Made by a program: the position numbers and the translations under genes. This document shows positions 3,607 through 10,324 of a stretch of 42,811 nucleotides of DNA, piece by piece (within the stretch, counting starts at the first letter, position 1; each line of letters opens with the position of its first letter). The notes below the pieces were generated by a model, which was given only the letters and a program-made list of their open reading frames with translations, had not been told where the DNA came from and did no database searches. The DNA comes from Culicoidibacterales bacterium (GTDB lineage: Bacteria > Bacillota_I > Bacilli_A > Culicoidibacterales > JBOFHN01), in NCBI GenBank assembly GCA_051649665.1, contig JBOFHN010000085.1, positions 1 to 42,811 of the forward strand, read 5' to 3'.

Positions 3607-3712
3607 AATTTTCAATAATACATTTAATATACTATAATTAAACGATATGATTAAAACTAAAATTCATTTTAAATTCACATACGTACGTATAATAAAATAT
3701 GAGGAGGATATA

Positions 3713-4390
3713 ATGAATATATTATTACTTGAAGATGAAAAGATTATTCGCGATGTTATTTTAGAGTATATGCATGAATCGGGATTTGATGCTGATTGTG
3801 CAAGTAATGCGAAAGAAGCGCTTATGTATTTAGAAACACGACCTTATGATGTTGCAATTCTTGATATTATGCTTCCAGGAGAACAAAGTGGGCTTGATGT
3901 TTTGAAGTGGATTCGATCACAAAATATGCAGATACCAGTTATTATGCTTAGCGCATTGAGTGATGAAAAGACCCAAGTTGAAGCATTTGATTACACAGCT
4001 GATGATTATGTGACAAAGCCGTTTTCGCCACAACTTTTACTTAAACGTATGGAAGCAGCAATTCGTCGATATCGCACACTCTCGAATATCACAACAGATA
4101 CATATGGAAAAGATGGTCTTGAACTTGTTGAGGATGCGTATCAATTTTTCTATCGAGGAAAATCACTGGAGTTAACATTGACCGAATTTTTAATTTTAAA
4201 TACACTTTATCAAAATCAAAAAATGATTTTTACACGAGATCATTTACTTGATGTGATATATCGTGAAGATGAGTTTCCAAATGATCGTATTATTGATGCC
4301 CATATTAAAAATATTCGTAAAAAACTACCAATTGATGTGATTCATACATGTAAAGGAATCGGTTATAGATACGAGGTGAAACAGGGATGA
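3713..4390 (+). CDS. OmpR-family response regulator
   Basis: Receiver domain (LLLEDE, phospho-acceptor context AILDIMLPG, KPF) plus a winged-helix C-terminus (LTLTEFLILNTL... GIGYRY). The start is set at ATG 3713, directly after GAGGAGGA. The track's N-terminal extension has no SD. Confidence 0.9.
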   Translation: MNILLLEDEKIIRDVILEYMHESGFDADCASNAKEALMYLETRPYDVAILDIMLPGEQSGLDVLKWIRSQNMQIPVIMLSALSDEKTQVEAFDYTADDYVTKPFSPQLLLKRMEAAIRRYRTLSNITTDTYGKDGLELVEDAYQFFYRGKSLELTLTEFLILNTLYQNQKMIFTRDHLLDVIYREDEFPNDRIIDAHIKNIRKKLPIDVIHTCKGIGYRYEVKQG

Positions 4391-5961
4391 AACTTTCACG
4401 AAAGATATTTTTATACAGTGGAATTTTAATGGCTTTTTTTATGATTTCTTGGTTTACTTATATGTTTATCATGCTTCCATCACTTTACCGTGCACAGGTT
4501 TTATCTGAACGACAAAATAACGTGAAGGAAATTTTATTGGCACATCAAACAAGAGAAACGTGTCAAATTGAAAGAAGTGATAGTGCGTATGAAAGCGTGT
4601 TTATGCCAAAAACAGGTTCGACTGTATATTTGTGTGGGACTTATGGAAAACAGTCGGTTGCTATCAAATCTGATAAATTGAAGGAATCACTTGGAAAATT
4701 ACAACAATTAGATAAAATTGATGATAATATGAAACAAGTATTTACAGAAGTAAAACAAGATGGGATTATGAAAGAAATTCGCGACTCACTTGTATTGCAT
4801 AATCAATATGTTGATATTGGTGTAGAAAGTGGGTTTATTAATACTATTTCTGAGGAACAAGGTGAATATGATGTCAAAATTATTGATAAGAATATTATGA
4901 TTCTGACAGCAACAGTAAAAGCAAAATCAAGTGGTTATTATGCCAATATCATAGGTGTTACAATCACAGATAAAGGAATGATGATGACGCTTGCGCCTTC
5001 AATCATTTCAGATACAGCATCACTTATTCCAACTATTACACAAAGCATACCAATGTTTCTCGTACTCTTTATTTTATTACTTTTTATTTCAACACTCCTG
5101 TTTTTAAGACAACTGGCGCGACCAATAGAAATGATTGCGAAAAGAGCGGATGATTTAAAACATGGAAATGATACACAACCTGTTCAATATAAAGGCAATG
5201 ATGCTATTAAACAACTATCAAATGCTGTTGATGAAATGTATCAGGAAATACATGATAATTACCAGCAGATGAAATTGAAAAATGATGCACTTCAAAAGGA
5301 AAAAGAGCGTCAACGTGCTTTCTTACTCGCCACATCACATGAACTGAAAACACCTGTTGCAACAAGTCGATTGCTTGTCAATAGTATGATTGAAAAGGTC
5401 GGTAAATATAAGGATACAGAGCGTTATTTACCAGAAGTAAGAGACGAGTTGATACGCATGCAACATAGTGTGATGAATATGCTTGATGCTTATGAAACAG
5501 TGACTGCCTCAGAAGAAGAAGTATCAGCTTATAGTGTATTTACGAAGGTGTGTAAGAAATACCAATATTTGTTTAATGAAAAGGATTTGGAAATAGTCTA
5601 TGAAATAGATGAAACTATAATACTTCATACAAGTAGTAAGCTCTTATTTACAATTTTTGATAATATGATATCAAATGCATATCGATATGCTGATGCACAT
5701 ACAGAAATTAATGTTGTAATTTCTAAACATGCACTTACTGTTTTTAATCGCTGTAAACCAATAGCCGAAGAAGTCATTCAAGCACTAGGAAAAGGAAAGA
5801 TTGATTCTCAAAATGAGGAAGGACATGGTCTTGGTATTTATTTAATATATCAATACTGTCGAATACTTGGAATGGAAATGAATGTTCAAAATATTCATGG
5901 GGGTGTAGAACAAATTTTACATTTTAATCGAATTGGAGATGATAATAATGTTAGCAGTTGA
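4387..5961 (+). CDS. sensor histidine kinase (two TM segments, roughly 180-aa extracytoplasmic loop, HAMP, HisKA, HATPase)
   Basis: H-box ATSHELKTPVA, N-box DNMISNAYRYA and G-box EGHGLGIYL are present. The start overlaps the response regulator stop (ATGA), so the two genes are translationally coupled. Confidence 0.85.
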   Translation: MKLSRKIFLYSGILMAFFMISWFTYMFIMLPSLYRAQVLSERQNNVKEILLAHQTRETCQIERSDSAYESVFMPKTGSTVYLCGTYGKQSVAIKSDKLKESLGKLQQLDKIDDNMKQVFTEVKQDGIMKEIRDSLVLHNQYVDIGVESGFINTISEEQGEYDVKIIDKNIMILTATVKAKSSGYYANIIGVTITDKGMMMTLAPSIISDTASLIPTITQSIPMFLVLFILLLFISTLLFLRQLARPIEMIAKRADDLKHGNDTQPVQYKGNDAIKQLSNAVDEMYQEIHDNYQQMKLKNDALQKEKERQRAFLLATSHELKTPVATSRLLVNSMIEKVGKYKDTERYLPEVRDELIRMQHSVMNMLDAYETVTASEEEVSAYSVFTKVCKKYQYLFNEKDLEIVYEIDETIILHTSSKLLFTIFDNMISNAYRYADAHTEINVVISKHALTVFNRCKPIAEEVIQALGKGKIDSQNEEGHGLGIYLIYQYCRILGMEMNVQNIHGGVEQILHFNRIGDDNNVSS

Positions 5962-6832
5962 AAAGATGAAAGTGCACTATGATAAGCACTGTGCCTTAAA
6001 TATTGACGAACGAATCACGATTGAAAAAGGAGATCGATTAGCTGTTATTGGTACAAACGGTGCAGGGAAATCAACGTTTGTTAAAGCGTGTCTTGGAATA
6101 ACACCGTATACAGGATCAATTCAAACAAAATTAAAGCCAGAAGATATGGCAGTGCATTTTCAGGAAAATGCATATTCAGAACGAGTTAGTATTAAAATAC
6201 TTATTGAAACCATTTTAAATACAAACATTAAAGAAAATGAAAAATTAGCTGATTTGATTCACTTTTTTGAATTTGAACCCCATCTTAAAAAGCGTTTTAA
6301 ACAGTTGTCAGGTGGAGAAAAGCAACGATTAACATTGATTTTAGTACTTATGCAAGATACACCTTTGACATTTTTTGATGAAGTAACATCAGGTCTTGAT
6401 TTTGAAACACGAATGAATTTAATGCGAAAAATTTATACATATTATGAAAACAAAGATGCATCAATCGTTTTAATATCGCATTATTATGAAGAAATTGAAG
6501 CATTGGCAAATAAAATATTACTCCTTGAAAAAGGAGAAGTTGTTTGCTATGGTGAGCCGAAGGCACTATTTCAAAAGTATTGTGGAAGATCTGTTTATGT
6601 TATATCAAAAGAGCAAAGTGAAAATTTAGATTTAAGTTTATTTAAACGATTAGAGGCACCGGCACATTTAATTGCGATTTCTTCATATGATGAACAAGAG
6701 GAAAATCAAATCGCACAGTATCTCATTCAAAATCACGTCAACTTTAAACGAAGTGAACAAGATGTTGAGTTACTTGCATATAATGCAAGACGTGTGTTTT
6801 TAATGAGAAAAGGAGTTGATATGTATGTATAA
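5948..6832 (+). CDS. ABC transporter ATP-binding protein
   Basis: Walker A GTNGAGKST, signature LSGGEKQR, Walker B LTFFDEVTSGLD. The start is set at ATG 5948 (GGAG at 5935..5938, 9-nt spacer) and overlaps the HK 3' end. Confidence 0.85.
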   Translation: MLAVEKMKVHYDKHCALNIDERITIEKGDRLAVIGTNGAGKSTFVKACLGITPYTGSIQTKLKPEDMAVHFQENAYSERVSIKILIETILNTNIKENEKLADLIHFFEFEPHLKKRFKQLSGGEKQRLTLILVLMQDTPLTFFDEVTSGLDFETRMNLMRKIYTYYENKDASIVLISHYYEEIEALANKILLLEKGEVVCYGEPKALFQKYCGRSVYVISKEQSENLDLSLFKRLEAPAHLIAISSYDEQEENQIAQYLIQNHVNFKRSEQDVELLAYNARRVFLMRKGVDMYV

Positions 6833-7583
6833 ACGTCTTGTCAAATATGAAATGGAGCAATTGATTCGAGGTGTATTCACACCAGTATTCGGGATTTTAT
6901 TTCCAATTTTTATGCTTGTTATTTTAAGTAAGAGTGCACTATCTGATGTACCTGCAATAGAATATGATGCGGTCCTTGTTTCTGTGTTTACCACACTTGT
7001 TCAAATTGTTCCACTCTCAGTTGGTTTTATAGGATTTACAGCAATTTATGCACAAGAACTTGAACAGAAAATACCATTTCGATTATGCATGTTTGGTATA
7101 AAAGAAAGTCAAATGCTCGTTGGGAAAGTCATTACACTCATATTTGTGTTTACAATTGGATATATCGCTTATACTTTGGTTGCGATATATGGTGTAAATG
7201 TTCCGAATATAACGCTTTGGAATTTACTTATTATGTATGCTTTCTTAACATTTGAAATGATCGGATTCATCATTCTTGGATATACAATTGCAGTGTATTT
7301 TAAAAAATTTGGTCAAGCATATACTGTTGTCACGGTTCTTTATTTTATTATTATGTTTGCAAGCGGTATGATGGGGATGAGAGAAAGCAGTATGCCAGAT
7401 ATTATGCAAAAGATTATTCGCTTCTTCCCATTTTCATACATATCGTTTGATCTGTATAAAATATTTTTGAATCAGTCATATAATTACATGCCACTCATTC
7501 AATCAATGCTATTCTTTATCGGGTTATCGATTGTACTGTGTGCACTCGTAATTCGATTTAAAGGGACAAAAAATGAAGCGTAA
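6825..7583 (+). CDS. ABC-2-type transporter permease (about 6 TM)
   Basis: Polytopic hydrophobic protein that overlaps the ATPase stop. AGGAG at 6811..6815 lies 9 nt before ATG 6825. There is no specific substrate signature. Confidence 0.7.
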   Translation: MYKRLVKYEMEQLIRGVFTPVFGILFPIFMLVILSKSALSDVPAIEYDAVLVSVFTTLVQIVPLSVGFIGFTAIYAQELEQKIPFRLCMFGIKESQMLVGKVITLIFVFTIGYIAYTLVAIYGVNVPNITLWNLLIMYAFLTFEMIGFIILGYTIAVYFKKFGQAYTVVTVLYFIIMFASGMMGMRESSMPDIMQKIIRFFPFSYISFDLYKIFLNQSYNYMPLIQSMLFFIGLSIVLCALVIRFKGTKNEA

Positions 7584-7708: not shown

Positions 7709-8695
7709 ATGATGAAAAAACATGAATTTACAAAAAAAGTTGAAAAATTGATTGATCCGATTGAAGTAGGAACAATTCACTTTATGCAATCATATATGAA
7801 ATACATTCCACTGAAGTTTCAAAATAAAATGATGCGTCACGGTGCGAAAAAAAGTCCACATATGGGATTTGTTGTGGAGCCATATAGTTTTTTTCTTTGC
7901 TATGAAGTAAACGATGTATCAATAGCAAATCAGATGTTACCAGATGGATACAGAATGACACGTGTAAAAATATTCGCTGAAGATGCTGAAGAAAAATATT
8001 ACTGTATATTTGGCTGTTTTAATGTCCATACGAGTGCGTTTTTAGGATCGAGAATGGAATGTTCTTTCATTGCTGAAAACAAAAAAACAGGTCTGGTGAG
8101 TTGGGTCATTGTTGACTACGATACAAATACTGTCTGTTTTGATGAGCAACATGGATTACGTGCAGGAAATACAGATCATTGTATTATTACAACAGACTAT
8201 AATGGAACTGTTATCGTCGATATTAAAGGAACAAGAGAACTTCAATTGAGTAGTGATATAACAAATGGTAATATACGAAACCTTGATGCATGTTTGTGGT
8301 TAGAAGGAAATTTCTCTGTGACATATGGGCGAGAACTTTCAAATAATCAAGATACTTCATTTGCGGTCATTTTCAATCCGAAAGAAGTAGAAAAAGCATT
8401 AGATATTCCAATTGAAAATGTATGCATTGATACAAATAATTGGTATTCAGATATTATAGATTTCAAACCTTGCTATGCTGTTTGTTTTCCTTACGCACAA
8501 CATTTTTTAGCTGATAGTCCTGGATATTCAAGCAGCATAAAAAATGCGGATGAACTTTTAGATATTGTGGAGAAAATGAATTTAAAATCAGTACCAAAAT
8601 ACTCAAGTCAATCACTAAAAAAAGCAATGCAATTCGGTCAAATTATTTCACTATTTGTGATTTTGTTACTCCTATTTTTACTTGTGATAAAGTGA
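7709..8695 (+). CDS. hypothetical protein, C-terminal TM anchor, Cys-rich soluble domain
   Basis: 328-aa ORF with AGGAG at 7701..7705; the start may be the second ATG at 7712. There is no N-terminal signal peptide. The single hydrophobic helix is at the extreme C-terminus (IISLFVILLLLFLLVI). I recognise no family motif. Confidence 0.6.
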   Translation: MMKKHEFTKKVEKLIDPIEVGTIHFMQSYMKYIPLKFQNKMMRHGAKKSPHMGFVVEPYSFFLCYEVNDVSIANQMLPDGYRMTRVKIFAEDAEEKYYCIFGCFNVHTSAFLGSRMECSFIAENKKTGLVSWVIVDYDTNTVCFDEQHGLRAGNTDHCIITTDYNGTVIVDIKGTRELQLSSDITNGNIRNLDACLWLEGNFSVTYGRELSNNQDTSFAVIFNPKEVEKALDIPIENVCIDTNNWYSDIIDFKPCYAVCFPYAQHFLADSPGYSSSIKNADELLDIVEKMNLKSVPKYSSQSLKKAMQFGQIISLFVILLLLFLLVIK

Positions 8696-8840: not shown

Positions 8841-8869
8841 TTGACAATGAATATACTTAAATGTAAAAT
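8841..8869 (+). promoter_or_regulatory. sigma-A-type promoter for the Rgg/ComR-like regulator
   Basis: TTGACA (8841..8846), a 17-nt spacer, then TAAAAT (8864..8869). This lies about 40 nt upstream of ATG 8908. Confidence 0.55.
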
Positions 8870-8907
8870 TGGAACAGGAACAAATACTGCTTATAAGGTG
8901 CGATATA

Positions 8908-9798
8908 ATGGATATAGAAAAATTAGGATGTAATATACGTTTATTGCGAGAAGGGAAAGGTCTAACAAGAGAGCAATTTTGTGAAGGAGAAAATGAACTT
9001 TCAGTTCGTCAATTGATGCGGATTGAAAAAGGGGAATCAACACCAACGCTTGCTAAATTGGTTTTTATAGCAGGCAAATTAGGAATAAGTGTGACAGCGT
9101 TATTTAATGAGAGTGAAAGCATGAGTGTGATACCTCAGCAATACTGGAATTTAAAGTATGAAATTGAGAAGCATAATATTTTTGATGATAGTGAAAAAGA
9201 TAAAAGATTGGCTATTTTGATGGAAATGTACGATTACTACTATGATGAATTACCTTCAGATGAACAATTATTTGTGGATTGTATGATGACCCTTAATGAT
9301 TTATATGAGGCAAGCGATATTTATTTTTTAATACCAGTATTAAGTAAGTATAAATATGTTTTGGATAGAGATGTGTTTCAAGCAAATGAATTGGCATATT
9401 TATCAATATATTTTATCTTCCAAATTGAAACGAGAAATTGGGTAATGAAAAATGATGATCTTATAGAACGGATTTTAACCCAATCTGTGTATGCTGATAG
9501 TATTACAAATGAAATTGCGATTAGAGTGTATATTAATATTATTACATATTGTATAACTAAAGAAGATTATAGAAAAGCTATTGAAGTTGCAGAAGCATCA
9601 GTTCATTTTATAAATTTGTGTAAATCATATCAAAGGATGCCAATTGTATATATGATGTTAGCTAAGAGTTATATAGGCTTAAAAGAATTTGATAAAGGAA
9701 TTATATTTTATCAAAAGGCTTTAGATTTGGCAGAGTTAATTCAATCTGAATCACTGCAGTCAAAAATTCGAAGCGAAAAAGACAACGATGTCCTGTGA
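8908..9798 (+). CDS. Rgg/ComR-like RRNPP-family transcriptional regulator (XRE HTH plus helical-repeat peptide-binding domain)
   Basis: The N-terminal HTH reads LTREQFCEGENELSVRQLMRIEKGESTPTLAKLVFIAGKLGISVTALF, followed by about 230 aa of helical repeats. The ELxVRQLxRIEKGESxPxL string and the later ...YYYDELPSDEQLF... resemble what I recall of streptococcal ComR more than Rgg2/3 (SQISRFERGES). The start is moved to ATG 8908 (AAGGTG at 8895..8900, 7-nt spacer). The track's TTG at 8869 lies inside the -10 hexamer. Confidence 0.8.
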   Translation: MDIEKLGCNIRLLREGKGLTREQFCEGENELSVRQLMRIEKGESTPTLAKLVFIAGKLGISVTALFNESESMSVIPQQYWNLKYEIEKHNIFDDSEKDKRLAILMEMYDYYYDELPSDEQLFVDCMMTLNDLYEASDIYFLIPVLSKYKYVLDRDVFQANELAYLSIYFIFQIETRNWVMKNDDLIERILTQSVYADSITNEIAIRVYINIITYCITKEDYRKAIEVAEASVHFINLCKSYQRMPIVYMMLAKSYIGLKEFDKGIIFYQKALDLAELIQSESLQSKIRSEKDNDVL

Positions 9799-9838
9799 CG
9801 TTGTTGTCCTGTTTCGATATTTGTGACTTTGATATGAT
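9781..9838 (+). promoter_or_regulatory. candidate operator and activator-dependent promoter for the mini-ORF
   Basis: GACAacgaTGTC inverted repeat (9781..9792). TGTCCTGT occurs twice (9789..9796 and 9805..9812). GACAAC (9781..9786) pairs with GTTGTC (9803..9808). Candidate -10 elements are GATATT (9816..9821) and TGaTATGAT (9830..9838), and neither has a good -35. Confidence 0.35.
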
Positions 9839-9873
9839 TTAATCTCAAGACTAAAGTAAAGGAGTTGAGAGAT

Positions 9874-9906
9874 ATGTGGTTTAATTTTTGCTGGTGGTGT
9901 TGTTAA
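9874..9906 (+). CDS. 10-codon mini-ORF MWFNFCWWCC (candidate leaderless peptide pheromone; alternatively a leader peptide or a chance ORF)
   Basis: AAAGGAG (9858..9864), a 9-nt spacer, then ATG TGG TTT AAT TTT TGC TGG TGG TGT TGT TAA TAA. It is on the same strand, 75 nt after the regulator stop. It has three Trp and three Cys in 10 codons and a tandem stop. It is too short to appear in the ORF track. Confidence 0.4.
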   Translation: MWFNFCWWCC

Positions 9907-10084
9907 TAATTAAAAAAGAACAGCTACTACTTTTACAGTGGTGAAGTTAGCACCTCGAGAAAAGGGAAAATGATTTAAGGGAATTGCAAGACGAAATATG
10001 TATGTGAATTAAAATTATAAAAAGTTTAGGGAACTATCTATAGTGTTAATTTTGAGGAACCATCTTTACGTAAATAAATATATA

Positions 10085-10120
10085 AAAAGATTTGAAGCCA
10101 TATCTTCAAATCTTTTTTTT
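10085..10120 (+). terminator. intrinsic terminator closing the regulator/mini-ORF unit
   Basis: AAAAGATTTGAAG (10085..10097), loop ccatat, CTTCAAATCTTTT (10104..10116), then a T run to 10120. Confidence 0.75.
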
Positions 10121-10145
10121 GTCCAAAAATGAAAGCGCTTATTTT

Positions 10146-10174
10146 TTGGAGTTATTTTGATATTACGCTATACT
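10146..10174 (+). promoter_or_regulatory. candidate promoter of the nucleotidase gene
   Basis: TTGGAG (10146..10151), a 17-nt spacer, then TATACT (10169..10174). This would leave a leader of about 150 nt. Confidence 0.4.
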
Positions 10175-10324
10175 GTAAACAGAGGTGATTAGTGAGTGTG
10201 TTTAATTGAAAATATCTAATCTCCTTAGAGATAAAATACGTATTATTGCGTGTTTTTTATGGAGGTGTGTGATTTTAATTGATAAATAAGAGGATAGAAC
10301 TGGTATGAAAGGATATGAAATAAT

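Follow-up and report, generated by a model that had tools for sequence, protein, structure and literature searches.

A probable ComRS-type peptide-signalling cassette with a ten-codon comS gene in an uncultured, deep-branching member of the Bacillota

Introduction

In many streptococci, ComRS is the master switch for competence and for making bacteriocins. To our knowledge, it has so far been treated as an invention of streptococci and Lactobacillales, with leader-bearing precursors. Here we describe a locus in an uncultured, deep-branching member of the Bacillota which probably is an autoinducing peptide-signalling cassette of the ComRS type. It is found in contig JBOFHN010000085.1 of the Culicoidibacterales bacterium assembly GCA_051649665.1, of which we have analyzed positions 1 to 42,811, a stretch of 42.8 kb which we call the window. 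The cassette contains a gene for a ComR-family regulator, comR, followed by a ten-codon mini-gene, comS, coding for the peptide MWFNFCWWCC. A first-pass annotation, made from the sequence alone, had proposed a minimal ComRS-like module outside the streptococci. This proposal is borne out by the family of the regulator, its DNA-reading arginines, a ComR box at 24 nucleotides (nt) from the -10 element of comS and a host which is not a streptococcus. The ComR box, the published class of leaderless peptides to which the locus is compared and a divergence hotspot are additions to that annotation.

The main features of streptococcal ComRS are well described. The precursor, ComS, has an N-terminal leader, and its removal gives a C-terminal sigX-inducing peptide (XIP) of 7–9 aa (amino acids); import goes through Opp, and comX/sigX belongs to the regulon. 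The core of the ComR box is GACA-N4-TGTC, and residues R35 and R39 of Streptococcus thermophilus ComR read its GACA half-sites (PMC5131891). In streptococcal comS promoters, the sequence GACANNNNTGTC precedes the -10 element by about 24 nt (PMC11848300). A pair of tryptophans (WW) is the signature of Type II XIPs (bioRxiv 2022.10.14.512260). In the crystal structure of the ComR-XIP-DNA complex, the C-terminus of XIP is buried, with a bond from its carboxylate to K100, and the N-terminus faces the solvent. S. mutans ComR is activated by unprocessed ComS of 17 aa, both in vitro and in Escherichia coli (PMC6211226). Allelic diversity of the pherotype type has been described for the ComRS of S. 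suis (PMC4072589).

Two other types of systems are close to this locus. The leaderless communication peptides (LCPs) have 8–10 aa, act on Rgg receptors of the RopB clan, are usually encoded divergently and are aliphatic (PMC10518010; review PMC13361665). Work on these leaderless peptides and their RopB receptors makes no mention of ComR (PMC10518010, PMC13361665). The orphan ComR paralogues of streptococci are the other case: Their cognate peptides were missed for years, as they lay outside expectations.

Results

The regulator

The comR gene (8908..9798, + strand) codes for a 296-aa receptor, assigned to the ComR family by Pfam, by sequence search in the PDB and by fold comparison. All its orthologues have 296–297 aa. 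The protein has an XRE helix-turn-helix (HTH) domain at aa ~1–66 (8908..9105, +), then a linker and a peptide-binding domain with five tetratricopeptide repeats (TPR) and CAP at aa ~75–296 (9130..9795, +). The match of the regulator to the ComR_TPR profile (PF18710) has an E-value of 3.8e-30 and a score of 105.7 bits, versus a cutoff of 26.5, and covers 222/222 profile positions. The N-terminus matches HTH_3 in Pfam at 3e-06.

A phmmer search of the PDB (E<=1) gives full-length matches to receptors of the RRNPP type for ComR only, from 1e-28 to 1e-24: S. suis ComR (5fd4, 1e-28), S. thermophilus ComR (5jub, 8e-26) and S. vestibularis ComR (6hu8, 1e-24). The other matches are short stretches of generic TPR or HTH proteins with E>=0.01, and no Rgg, RopB, PlcR or PrgX chain is found at E<=1. 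A search of NCBIfam with the regulator gives no Rgg-type match.

The same result is obtained from the predicted structure. An AlphaFold2 model, built from an alignment of 35 homologues, has a mean predicted local distance difference test (pLDDT) value of 88.4. When it is compared with the PDB using Foldseek, the best 10 matches are all ComR (9e-13 to 2e-07). Other families appear with PlcR at 1e-6, Rgg at ~1e-5, PrgX at ~1e-4 and the LCP receptor NrpR at 1.1e-4, 6–8 orders of magnitude weaker than the top ComR matches at ~1e-12. The TPR domain alone can be superimposed on the ComR fold with a TM of 0.82 and a root-mean-square deviation of 3.2 Å. From these sequence and model comparisons, the regulator is a true ComR-family protein. 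The first-pass annotation had described its HTH as ComR-like; profile and structure comparison do place ComR ahead of Rgg, PlcR and PrgX.

The residues expected to read DNA are conserved. R34 and R38 of the window protein align with R35 and R39 of S. thermophilus ComR, and both arginines are invariant in 35/35 ComR homologues. The equivalent of R51 is a lysine. At the position of K100, which anchors the peptide, the ComRs of the four syntenic loci described below have R, K, R and R, so that a basic residue is kept.

The comS promoter

Two ComR boxes are found between comR and comS. Box 1, GACAACGATGTC (9781..9792, no strand assigned), overlaps the last codons of comR (D-N-D-V) and is present only in the four syntenic loci. 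Box 2, GACGTTGTTGTC (9797..9808, no strand assigned), is the putative activating site: It starts within the TGA stop codon of comR, 4 nt after box 1, and is placed 24 nt upstream of the -10 element. One of its half-sites is GACG in the window, not GACA. The -10 element of the comS promoter (PcomS) is of the extended type, TGATATGAT (9830..9838, +), with TATGAT preceded by TGn, and there is no recognisable -35 hexamer, which suggests that the promoter is activator-dependent. The sequence CTTTGnTATGAT is invariant across the four syntenic loci.

This arrangement is rare. In the 42.8-kb window, the double ComR box is present a single time, versus 0.01 occurrences expected. The full pattern of a box, 24 nt and a -10 element, for which ~0.16 occurrences are expected per shuffled window, is found at comS only, both in the window and in all related contigs. 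The 24-nt spacing from GAC[AG]N4TGTC to TAnnnT, followed by a Shine-Dalgarno (SD) sequence and an open reading frame (ORF) with WW, is seen in 6/6 loci.

Boxes 1 and 2 together form an extended palindrome (9781..9808, +); in the comR mRNA, this would fold as a 12-bp hairpin at the 3' end. Its predicted energy is −17.7 kcal/mol in the window (z −5.0) and −21.7 in locus L006 (z −6.1), with weaker values in L003 (−11.2, z −2.6) and L001 (−8.8, z −1.3). The hairpin may insulate comS from read-through of comR, or act as a stabiliser. Another promoter-like match at 9829..9857 was rejected, as it is not kept in the orthologues.

The regulator gene has its own promoter, TTGACA-17-TAAAAT (8841..8869, +), with 11 of 12 matches and no ComR box upstream. 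It is presumably constitutive.

The ten-codon mini-gene

The stop codon of comR ends at 9798, and a gap of 75 nt follows. The SD sequence is AAAGGAG (9858..9864, +), with a 9-nt spacer to the ATG at 9874. The mini-gene (9874..9906, +) reads ATG TGG TTT AAT TTT TGC TGG TGG TGT TGT TAA TAA, with a second TAA stop at 9907..9909, and 6 of its 10 codons are for Trp or Cys. The first-pass coordinates of the comR promoter, the 296-aa ORF, the SD sequence, the spacer and the mini-gene have been confirmed by direct reading, by the ORF list and by scripts. The tandem stop was also correct, except that the end given at 9906 covers the first stop only. An in-frame TTG at 9865 was rejected as a start codon: It directly abuts the SD sequence, and the ATG at 9874 was kept.

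No other ORF of 5–45 aa which is preceded by an SD sequence and contains WW is found in either strand of the 42.8-kb window, and there is no other SD-preceded ORF between the mini-gene and the terminator. The stop of comS is separated from the terminator by ~180 nt. This non-coding 3' tail (9910..10083, +) contains short conserved blocks, no supported structure and no conserved ORF; it has no Rfam match at E<=1, and its sole conserved structure is that of the terminator. The transcript ends at a bidirectional intrinsic terminator (10084..10120, no strand assigned), formed by a hairpin (10084..10117) and a T-run, and is monocistronic. The strong terminator near 10085..10120 of the earlier annotation is thus real, and its hairpin is kept in 4/4 syntenic loci.

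Directly upstream of the terminator, a perfect palindrome, TTTACGTAAA, is found within a conserved ATCTTTACGTAA in 4/4 syntenic loci (window, 10065..10074; L001, ~3672; L003, ~9183; L006, ~9196).

Conservation of the mini-gene

Close homologues of ComR are very scarce: We have found four among 5.8 billion proteins, all of them in Logan assemblies; the SRA runs with the orthologues are SRR31326945/50, SRR34340283-86 and SRR34340261. More distant relatives were obtained from a profile search. Three loci, L001, L003 and L006, have ComRs which are 62%, 57% and 52% identical to that of the window and are syntenic with it. They share a two-component system, an ABC-2 pair, a ~330-aa protein, ComR, a 5'-nucleotidase and MatE, in this order. 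Each of the three has the double box, the 24-nt spacing, TATGAT, the SD sequence AAGGAGG at 6–8 nt from an ATG, and a short ORF. The peptides are MRFTWWNVNWWDCG in L001, MFSWWNLNWWQVG in L003 and MFSWWNVNWWQVV in L006.

These ORFs have 13–14 codons and share with the window the core W[WF]N[VLF][NC]WW. The first-pass annotation had specified beforehand an orthologue comparison of SD, frame and WW downstream of the regulators; all three are kept. The peptide of the window had also been described as already having the length of a mature pheromone. This holds for the window and for L169 (see below), both with 10 aa, and not for the sister species, with 13–14. The CxxCC arrangement, to which some importance had been given, turns out to be allele-specific: The orthologous peptides end in DCG, QVG and QVV, so the Cys richness of the window peptide is not conserved.

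An independent case is L169, whose ComR is 34% identical to that of the window and has unrelated genes around it. Here, one perfect box, ACATGACATGGATGTCATGT, is followed at 24 nt by TACAAT, then by GGAAGGAG and a 10-codon ORF, MWNLLVMWWG, with its own terminator after it. In L170, also with a 34% identical ComR and the same promoter, we have found a canonical 34-aa leader-bearing ComS, MSKNTFRYYVLLALPLIVKVGEVVIERGWWGVGR. Other streptococcal-type ComR loci from metagenomes have a 21-aa ComS with an MKK leader behind the same promoter architecture. Since leader-bearing ComS is found at the canonical loci, ultrashort ComS is a property of the new clade and not an artefact of detection.

In a neighbour-joining tree, the window, L001, L003 and L006 form one group, sister to L007, L168 and L169, and this new clade is separate from all named streptococcal ComRs. 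L170 groups with the streptococcal-type ComRs. A scan of JGI metagenomes with a ComR profile gave only streptococcal-type ComRs with ~30% identity, and no new clade members.

The sequence TGGTGG appears in 6–9% of shuffles of each 300-nt downstream region. It is found in frame, near the C-terminus of an SD-preceded ORF, in 6/6 loci, which represent three independent lineages. Judged from this sequence comparison, the mini-ORF is a conserved gene.

Two of the clade ComRs, in L007 (188..1096) and L168 (435..1346), are 33–39% identical to the window ComR. The sequencing projects in which they were found are those of the syntenic loci, so each may be a second ComR paralogue of one of these organisms. 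A different arrangement is seen in L090, L095, L106, L119, L152 and about 15 more metagenome loci with ComR paralogues of the streptococcal type: A box placed ~20–25 nt past the ComR stop, with 24 nt to a TATACT, drives a gene for an ABC-transporter ATPase (MTNLIVAKQLSKEF...) instead of comS, and no peptide gene is evident. These loci look like orphan ComR paralogues.

A divergence hotspot

One strain, L001, is nearly identical to the window except for a region of ~950 bp (9100..10045, +), which includes the TPR domain of ComR, PcomS, comS and its 3' tail. In a map of DNA identity with 60-nt segments, values are 95–100% up to ~9040, 47–75% at ~9100–10045 and 85–97% from 10045. The proteins coded in the flanks are 98.4% (ABC-2 permease), 96.3% (5'-nucleotidase) and 96.2% (MatE) identical; values are 92.7% for the 328-aa protein upstream of comR and 90.8% for SBP, but only 61.5% for ComR. 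The difference is located inside ComR, where identity is 94% for the HTH domain but 52% for the TPR domain. The most similar pair of TPR domains (L003 and L006, 66%) goes with almost identical peptides.

From its sequence divergence, the hotspot looks like the result of a diversification of pherotypes or of a replacement of alleles. The joint divergence of the TPR domain and comS is the strongest in-silico evidence we have for a partnership between the peptide and the TPR pocket. We have looked for further alleles using exact matches to the upstream neighbours of the window, and none are on record. The palindrome TTTACGTAAA lies just inside the high-identity right edge of the hotspot, ~20 nt beyond the recovery of identity.

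Host and neighbouring genes

The window is ordinary chromosome, with gltX, dnaE, secA, prfB, uvrB and an arc operon, and 32–36% GC. The best named matches of SecA are a Culicoidibacterales metagenome-assembled genome (57%) and Bacillaceae (55–56%), with no Lactobacillales among the top 120 matches. The only close relatives, 93% and 73% identical, are found in Logan assemblies. UvrB is 63–64% identical to Bacillus and Paenibacillus, in a pattern-limited sample where all values are 57–64%, which is uninformative for placement. According to NCBI, Culicoidibacterales form their own class of Bacillota. The host would be a deep-branching member of the Bacillota and not a streptococcus, an approximate placement based on best-hit identities. 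On this basis, the locus appears to be an exception to the host range of ComRS.

A 328-aa protein with a C-terminal transmembrane helix (7709..8695, +) is coded directly upstream of comR in 4/4 syntenic loci. It has no sequence match in Pfam, NCBIfam or the PDB. A single-sequence AlphaFold2 model failed (pLDDT 37), and suggested a beta-rich N-terminal region. Further upstream (3647..7583, +), there is a conserved module of four genes, which code for a response regulator of the OmpR type, a histidine kinase, an ABC ATPase and an ABC-2 permease. The permease matches ABC2_membrane_3 and not EcsB or PptB, has no ComR box nearby and shows no link to peptide export. The earlier suggestion that the ABC-2 pair might be the exporter thus finds no support.

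In L003 and L006, a convergent gene for an XRE-family HTH protein of 139–140 aa (9230..9649 and 9244..9666, respectively, both on the − strand) separates the comS terminator from the 5'-nucleotidase gene. Neither the window nor L001 has this gene. In L003 and L006, the comS terminator also terminates it. The 5'-nucleotidase/phosphoesterase itself is a secreted 845-aa protein with an LPxTG-like motif, and its gene has its own promoter, ACGCTATACTGTAA, conserved in the four loci. Its leader of ~150 nt ends in a terminator-like hairpin and a T-run just before ATGGAGGTGT. The leader regions are 10125..10324 in the window, 3740..3929 in L001, ~9830..10053 in L003 and ~9850..10085 in L006. The window copy, the only one compared with Rfam, has no match at E<=1. 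This leader could be an undescribed attenuator or riboswitch.

Discussion

A ComRS-type circuit may be proposed from these elements. Transcription of comR from its own sigma-A promoter would provide the apo receptor, while the extended -10 element, lacking a -35 hexamer, would allow a low basal level of the peptide MWFNFCWWCC. The TPR pocket of ComR would take the C-terminal segment of the peptide, including WW, with its carboxylate anchored by R100, which corresponds to K100 of the S. thermophilus receptor. Binding would free the HTH domain and drive dimerisation of ComR. The dimer, on box 2 (GACGTTGTTGTC) in the position of a -35 element, would then activate comS, giving positive feedback. 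Other promoters with a box elsewhere in the genome are presumably activated too and would form the regulon. The TPR domain of ComR and comS would form a cassette for specificity (pherotype), with joint inheritance and diversification.

The peptide is most likely active with little or no processing, like the leaderless communication peptides of RopB. A precursor of 10 aa is too short for the basic-hydrophobic leader of PptAB/Eep-type export and processing, from which we infer that it acts essentially as made. A 10-aa peptide is presumably also too short to span the membrane, as intramembrane processing of the Eep type would require. The initial Met is probably retained, since it is followed by Trp, Phe or Arg (methionine aminopeptidase specificity). 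The buried C-terminus of XIP and the activity of unprocessed S. mutans ComS make an unprocessed peptide plausible.

Several observations weigh against this interpretation. Two clade members do not show the expected arrangement: In L007, a short contig, neither a box nor a WW ORF is found downstream of comR, and L168 has no identifiable comS, its contig ending at the ComR stop codon. Trp has a single codon, so synonymous sites offer little evidence of selection for coding. Within the clade, WW is followed by 1–3 residues, versus 2 in Type II XIPs; this variable length argues against one fixed register of binding, or else suggests that the C-terminus is trimmed. In the receptor, the positions of the PTY loop read NIF, SNY, SSF or NSF, with the aromatic residue alone kept, and the equivalent of R92 is D or E. 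Both R92 and the PTY loop matter for the activation of S. thermophilus ComR, so details of activation may differ here. No comX/sigX, opp, pptAB or eep gene, and no further ComR box or regulon member, is found in the 42.8-kb window or in related contigs. Finally, translation of comS, its binding and the induction of the cassette are predicted from sequence and models.

The best of the other explanations is a loop restricted to each cell, in which ComS is never exported and ComR feedback acts as a bistable cytoplasmic switch, a timer or noise generator. The peptide has no leader and no nearby exporter, and the transcript is monocistronic and self-activating, as such a switch would have it. In fact, endogenous unprocessed ComS of S. 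mutans activates ComR without export or import, and reaches the outside via lysis (PMC6211226). Nevertheless, we consider a private loop, although a serious alternative, to be the less likely one. It gives little reason for a pherotype-type diversification of the TPR domain and comS, which fits an exchange between cells, and LCPs, about as small, are secreted and taken up again although they have no leader (PMC10518010). An autoinducing signal which is exported and taken up again would explain these facts better.

A quite improbable alternative is that the mini-gene codes for an effector controlled by ComR, such as an antimicrobial or membrane-active peptide or the core of a ribosomally made, post-translationally modified peptide (RiPP), with the true ligand encoded elsewhere. 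Streptococcal ComR paralogues do control bacteriocin genes directly, and the peptide is very hydrophobic and aromatic, Cys-rich in the window allele. However, the transcription unit stops at the terminator and includes no modification, immunity or export genes, and 10–14 aa without a leader is far below the size of class II bacteriocin or RiPP precursors. Position, promoter and WW motif match comS exactly, and the peptide diverges together with the peptide-binding domain of the receptor.

The first-pass annotation had considered a Trp/Cys leader peptide sensing tRNA charging, which would control read-through of the terminator (10084..10120) into the 5'-nucleotidase gene. The tandem Trp codons do resemble those of trpL, and there is a terminator downstream. 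But the gene past the terminator in L003 and L006 is convergent, leaving nothing to read into, and the 5'-nucleotidase gene is preceded by a conserved promoter and leader of its own. There is no conservation of the Cys codons, folding of the alignment supports the terminator hairpin only, with no alternative pairing across ~180 nt, and there is no Rfam match. No gene for Trp or Cys biosynthesis or transport is adjacent, and the ORF lies behind a ComR box. Attenuation is rejected on these grounds.

Short ORFs are common and this one has only 33 nt, so a chance ORF in AT-rich intergenic DNA, also mentioned in that annotation, had to be considered; we give it practically no credit, as conservation rules it out: SD, ATG, frame, WW and stop are kept in three species despite diverged intergenic DNA around them, the ORF recurs in the unrelated context of L169 behind the same promoter, it is unique of its type in 42.8 kb, and the low frequency of TGGTGG per locus must be multiplied across three independent lineages.

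If the ComRS reading is correct, it has several consequences. A ComR clade with the same box and promoter geometry in deep-branching uncultured Bacillota widens the range of the family. A pheromone gene of 10 codons means that the minimal size of ComS is below what had been assumed. Signalling without a leader, linked until now to receptors of the RopB clan, seems to extend beyond a single receptor lineage. The ligands of orphan ComR paralogues may be sought by looking for conserved ultrashort ORFs placed behind a ComR box, and the sharply bounded block of TPR domain and comS between near-identical strains offers natural specificity-swap alleles to study the rules of recognition. A wider picture can be put forward tentatively: There might be a new ComR clade outside Streptococcus and probably outside Lactobacillales, with truly leaderless and unprocessed pheromones of ~10 aa, which arose independently of the RopB/LCP lineage, export not depending on PptAB/Eep and exchange of a ~1-kb cassette between strains, and the ligands of orphan streptococcal ComRs may be overlooked ultrashort ORFs.

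Comparison with known systems

Streptococcal ComRS is the closest system. The receptor has an HTH and five TPRs by sequence and fold, with R35/R39 kept and a basic residue at the K100 anchor position; the GACA-N4-TGTC box is 24 nt from the comS -10 element; and comS is directly downstream of comR in the same strand. WW near the peptide's C-terminus is shared with Type II ComRS (S. mutans, S. pyogenes), and allelic diversity of the pherotype type with S. suis (PMC4072589).

On the other hand, there are clear differences. ComS has 10–14 aa and no basic-hydrophobic leader, versus 21 and 34 aa in canonical systems and 17 aa in S. mutans: The ORFs of the window, of L169 and of the orthologues have no basic N-terminus with a hydrophobic stretch after it, so that the leader-bearing precursor typical of ComRS is lacking. 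There is an extra upstream box inside the coding end of comR. The PTY loop and R92 are not kept, and no comX target is present in the window or related contigs. The receptor clade is separate, and its host is not a streptococcus nor, by best hits, a member of the Lactobacillales.

RopB/LCP systems show another set of likenesses. They also have an ORF of ~8–10 codons with a strong SD sequence, a signal encoded at its mature length or close to it and lacking sequences for secretion or processing, an adjacent gene for a cytosolic receptor of the RRNPP type, and autoinduction, which is predicted here. The peptides of the window and L169 start with MW, as do SIP (MWLLLLFL) and LCPss (MWLILLFL) (PMC10518010), a resemblance to which we attach no interpretation. 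In contrast, the receptor belongs to the ComR clade (by fold, NrpR 1.1e-4 versus ComR ~1e-12), the peptide gene is co-directional and downstream instead of divergent, the peptide is rich in W, F, C and N and not in aliphatic L and I, and the DNA site is a ComR box.

The orphan ComR paralogues (ScuR/SarF type; Type IV ComRS; S. salivarius, S. mutans) are also ComR-family proteins, which may control functions other than competence. They are streptococcal, and the peptides found for them are presented in the literature as comS genes yielding C-terminal XIPs, in contrast with the ultrashort gene described here.

Our search of the literature gave no account of a ComS which is leaderless or ultrashort, and none of a ComRS system beyond the Lactobacillales. 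In summary, the cassette has the testable features of ComRS except for the leader-bearing precursor and the host taxon. By analogy, it would work like an LCP system while having a receptor from outside the RopB clan. ComRS and leaderless LCPs are both known: A system of the ComR clade with an ultrashort, probably unprocessed ComS is new.

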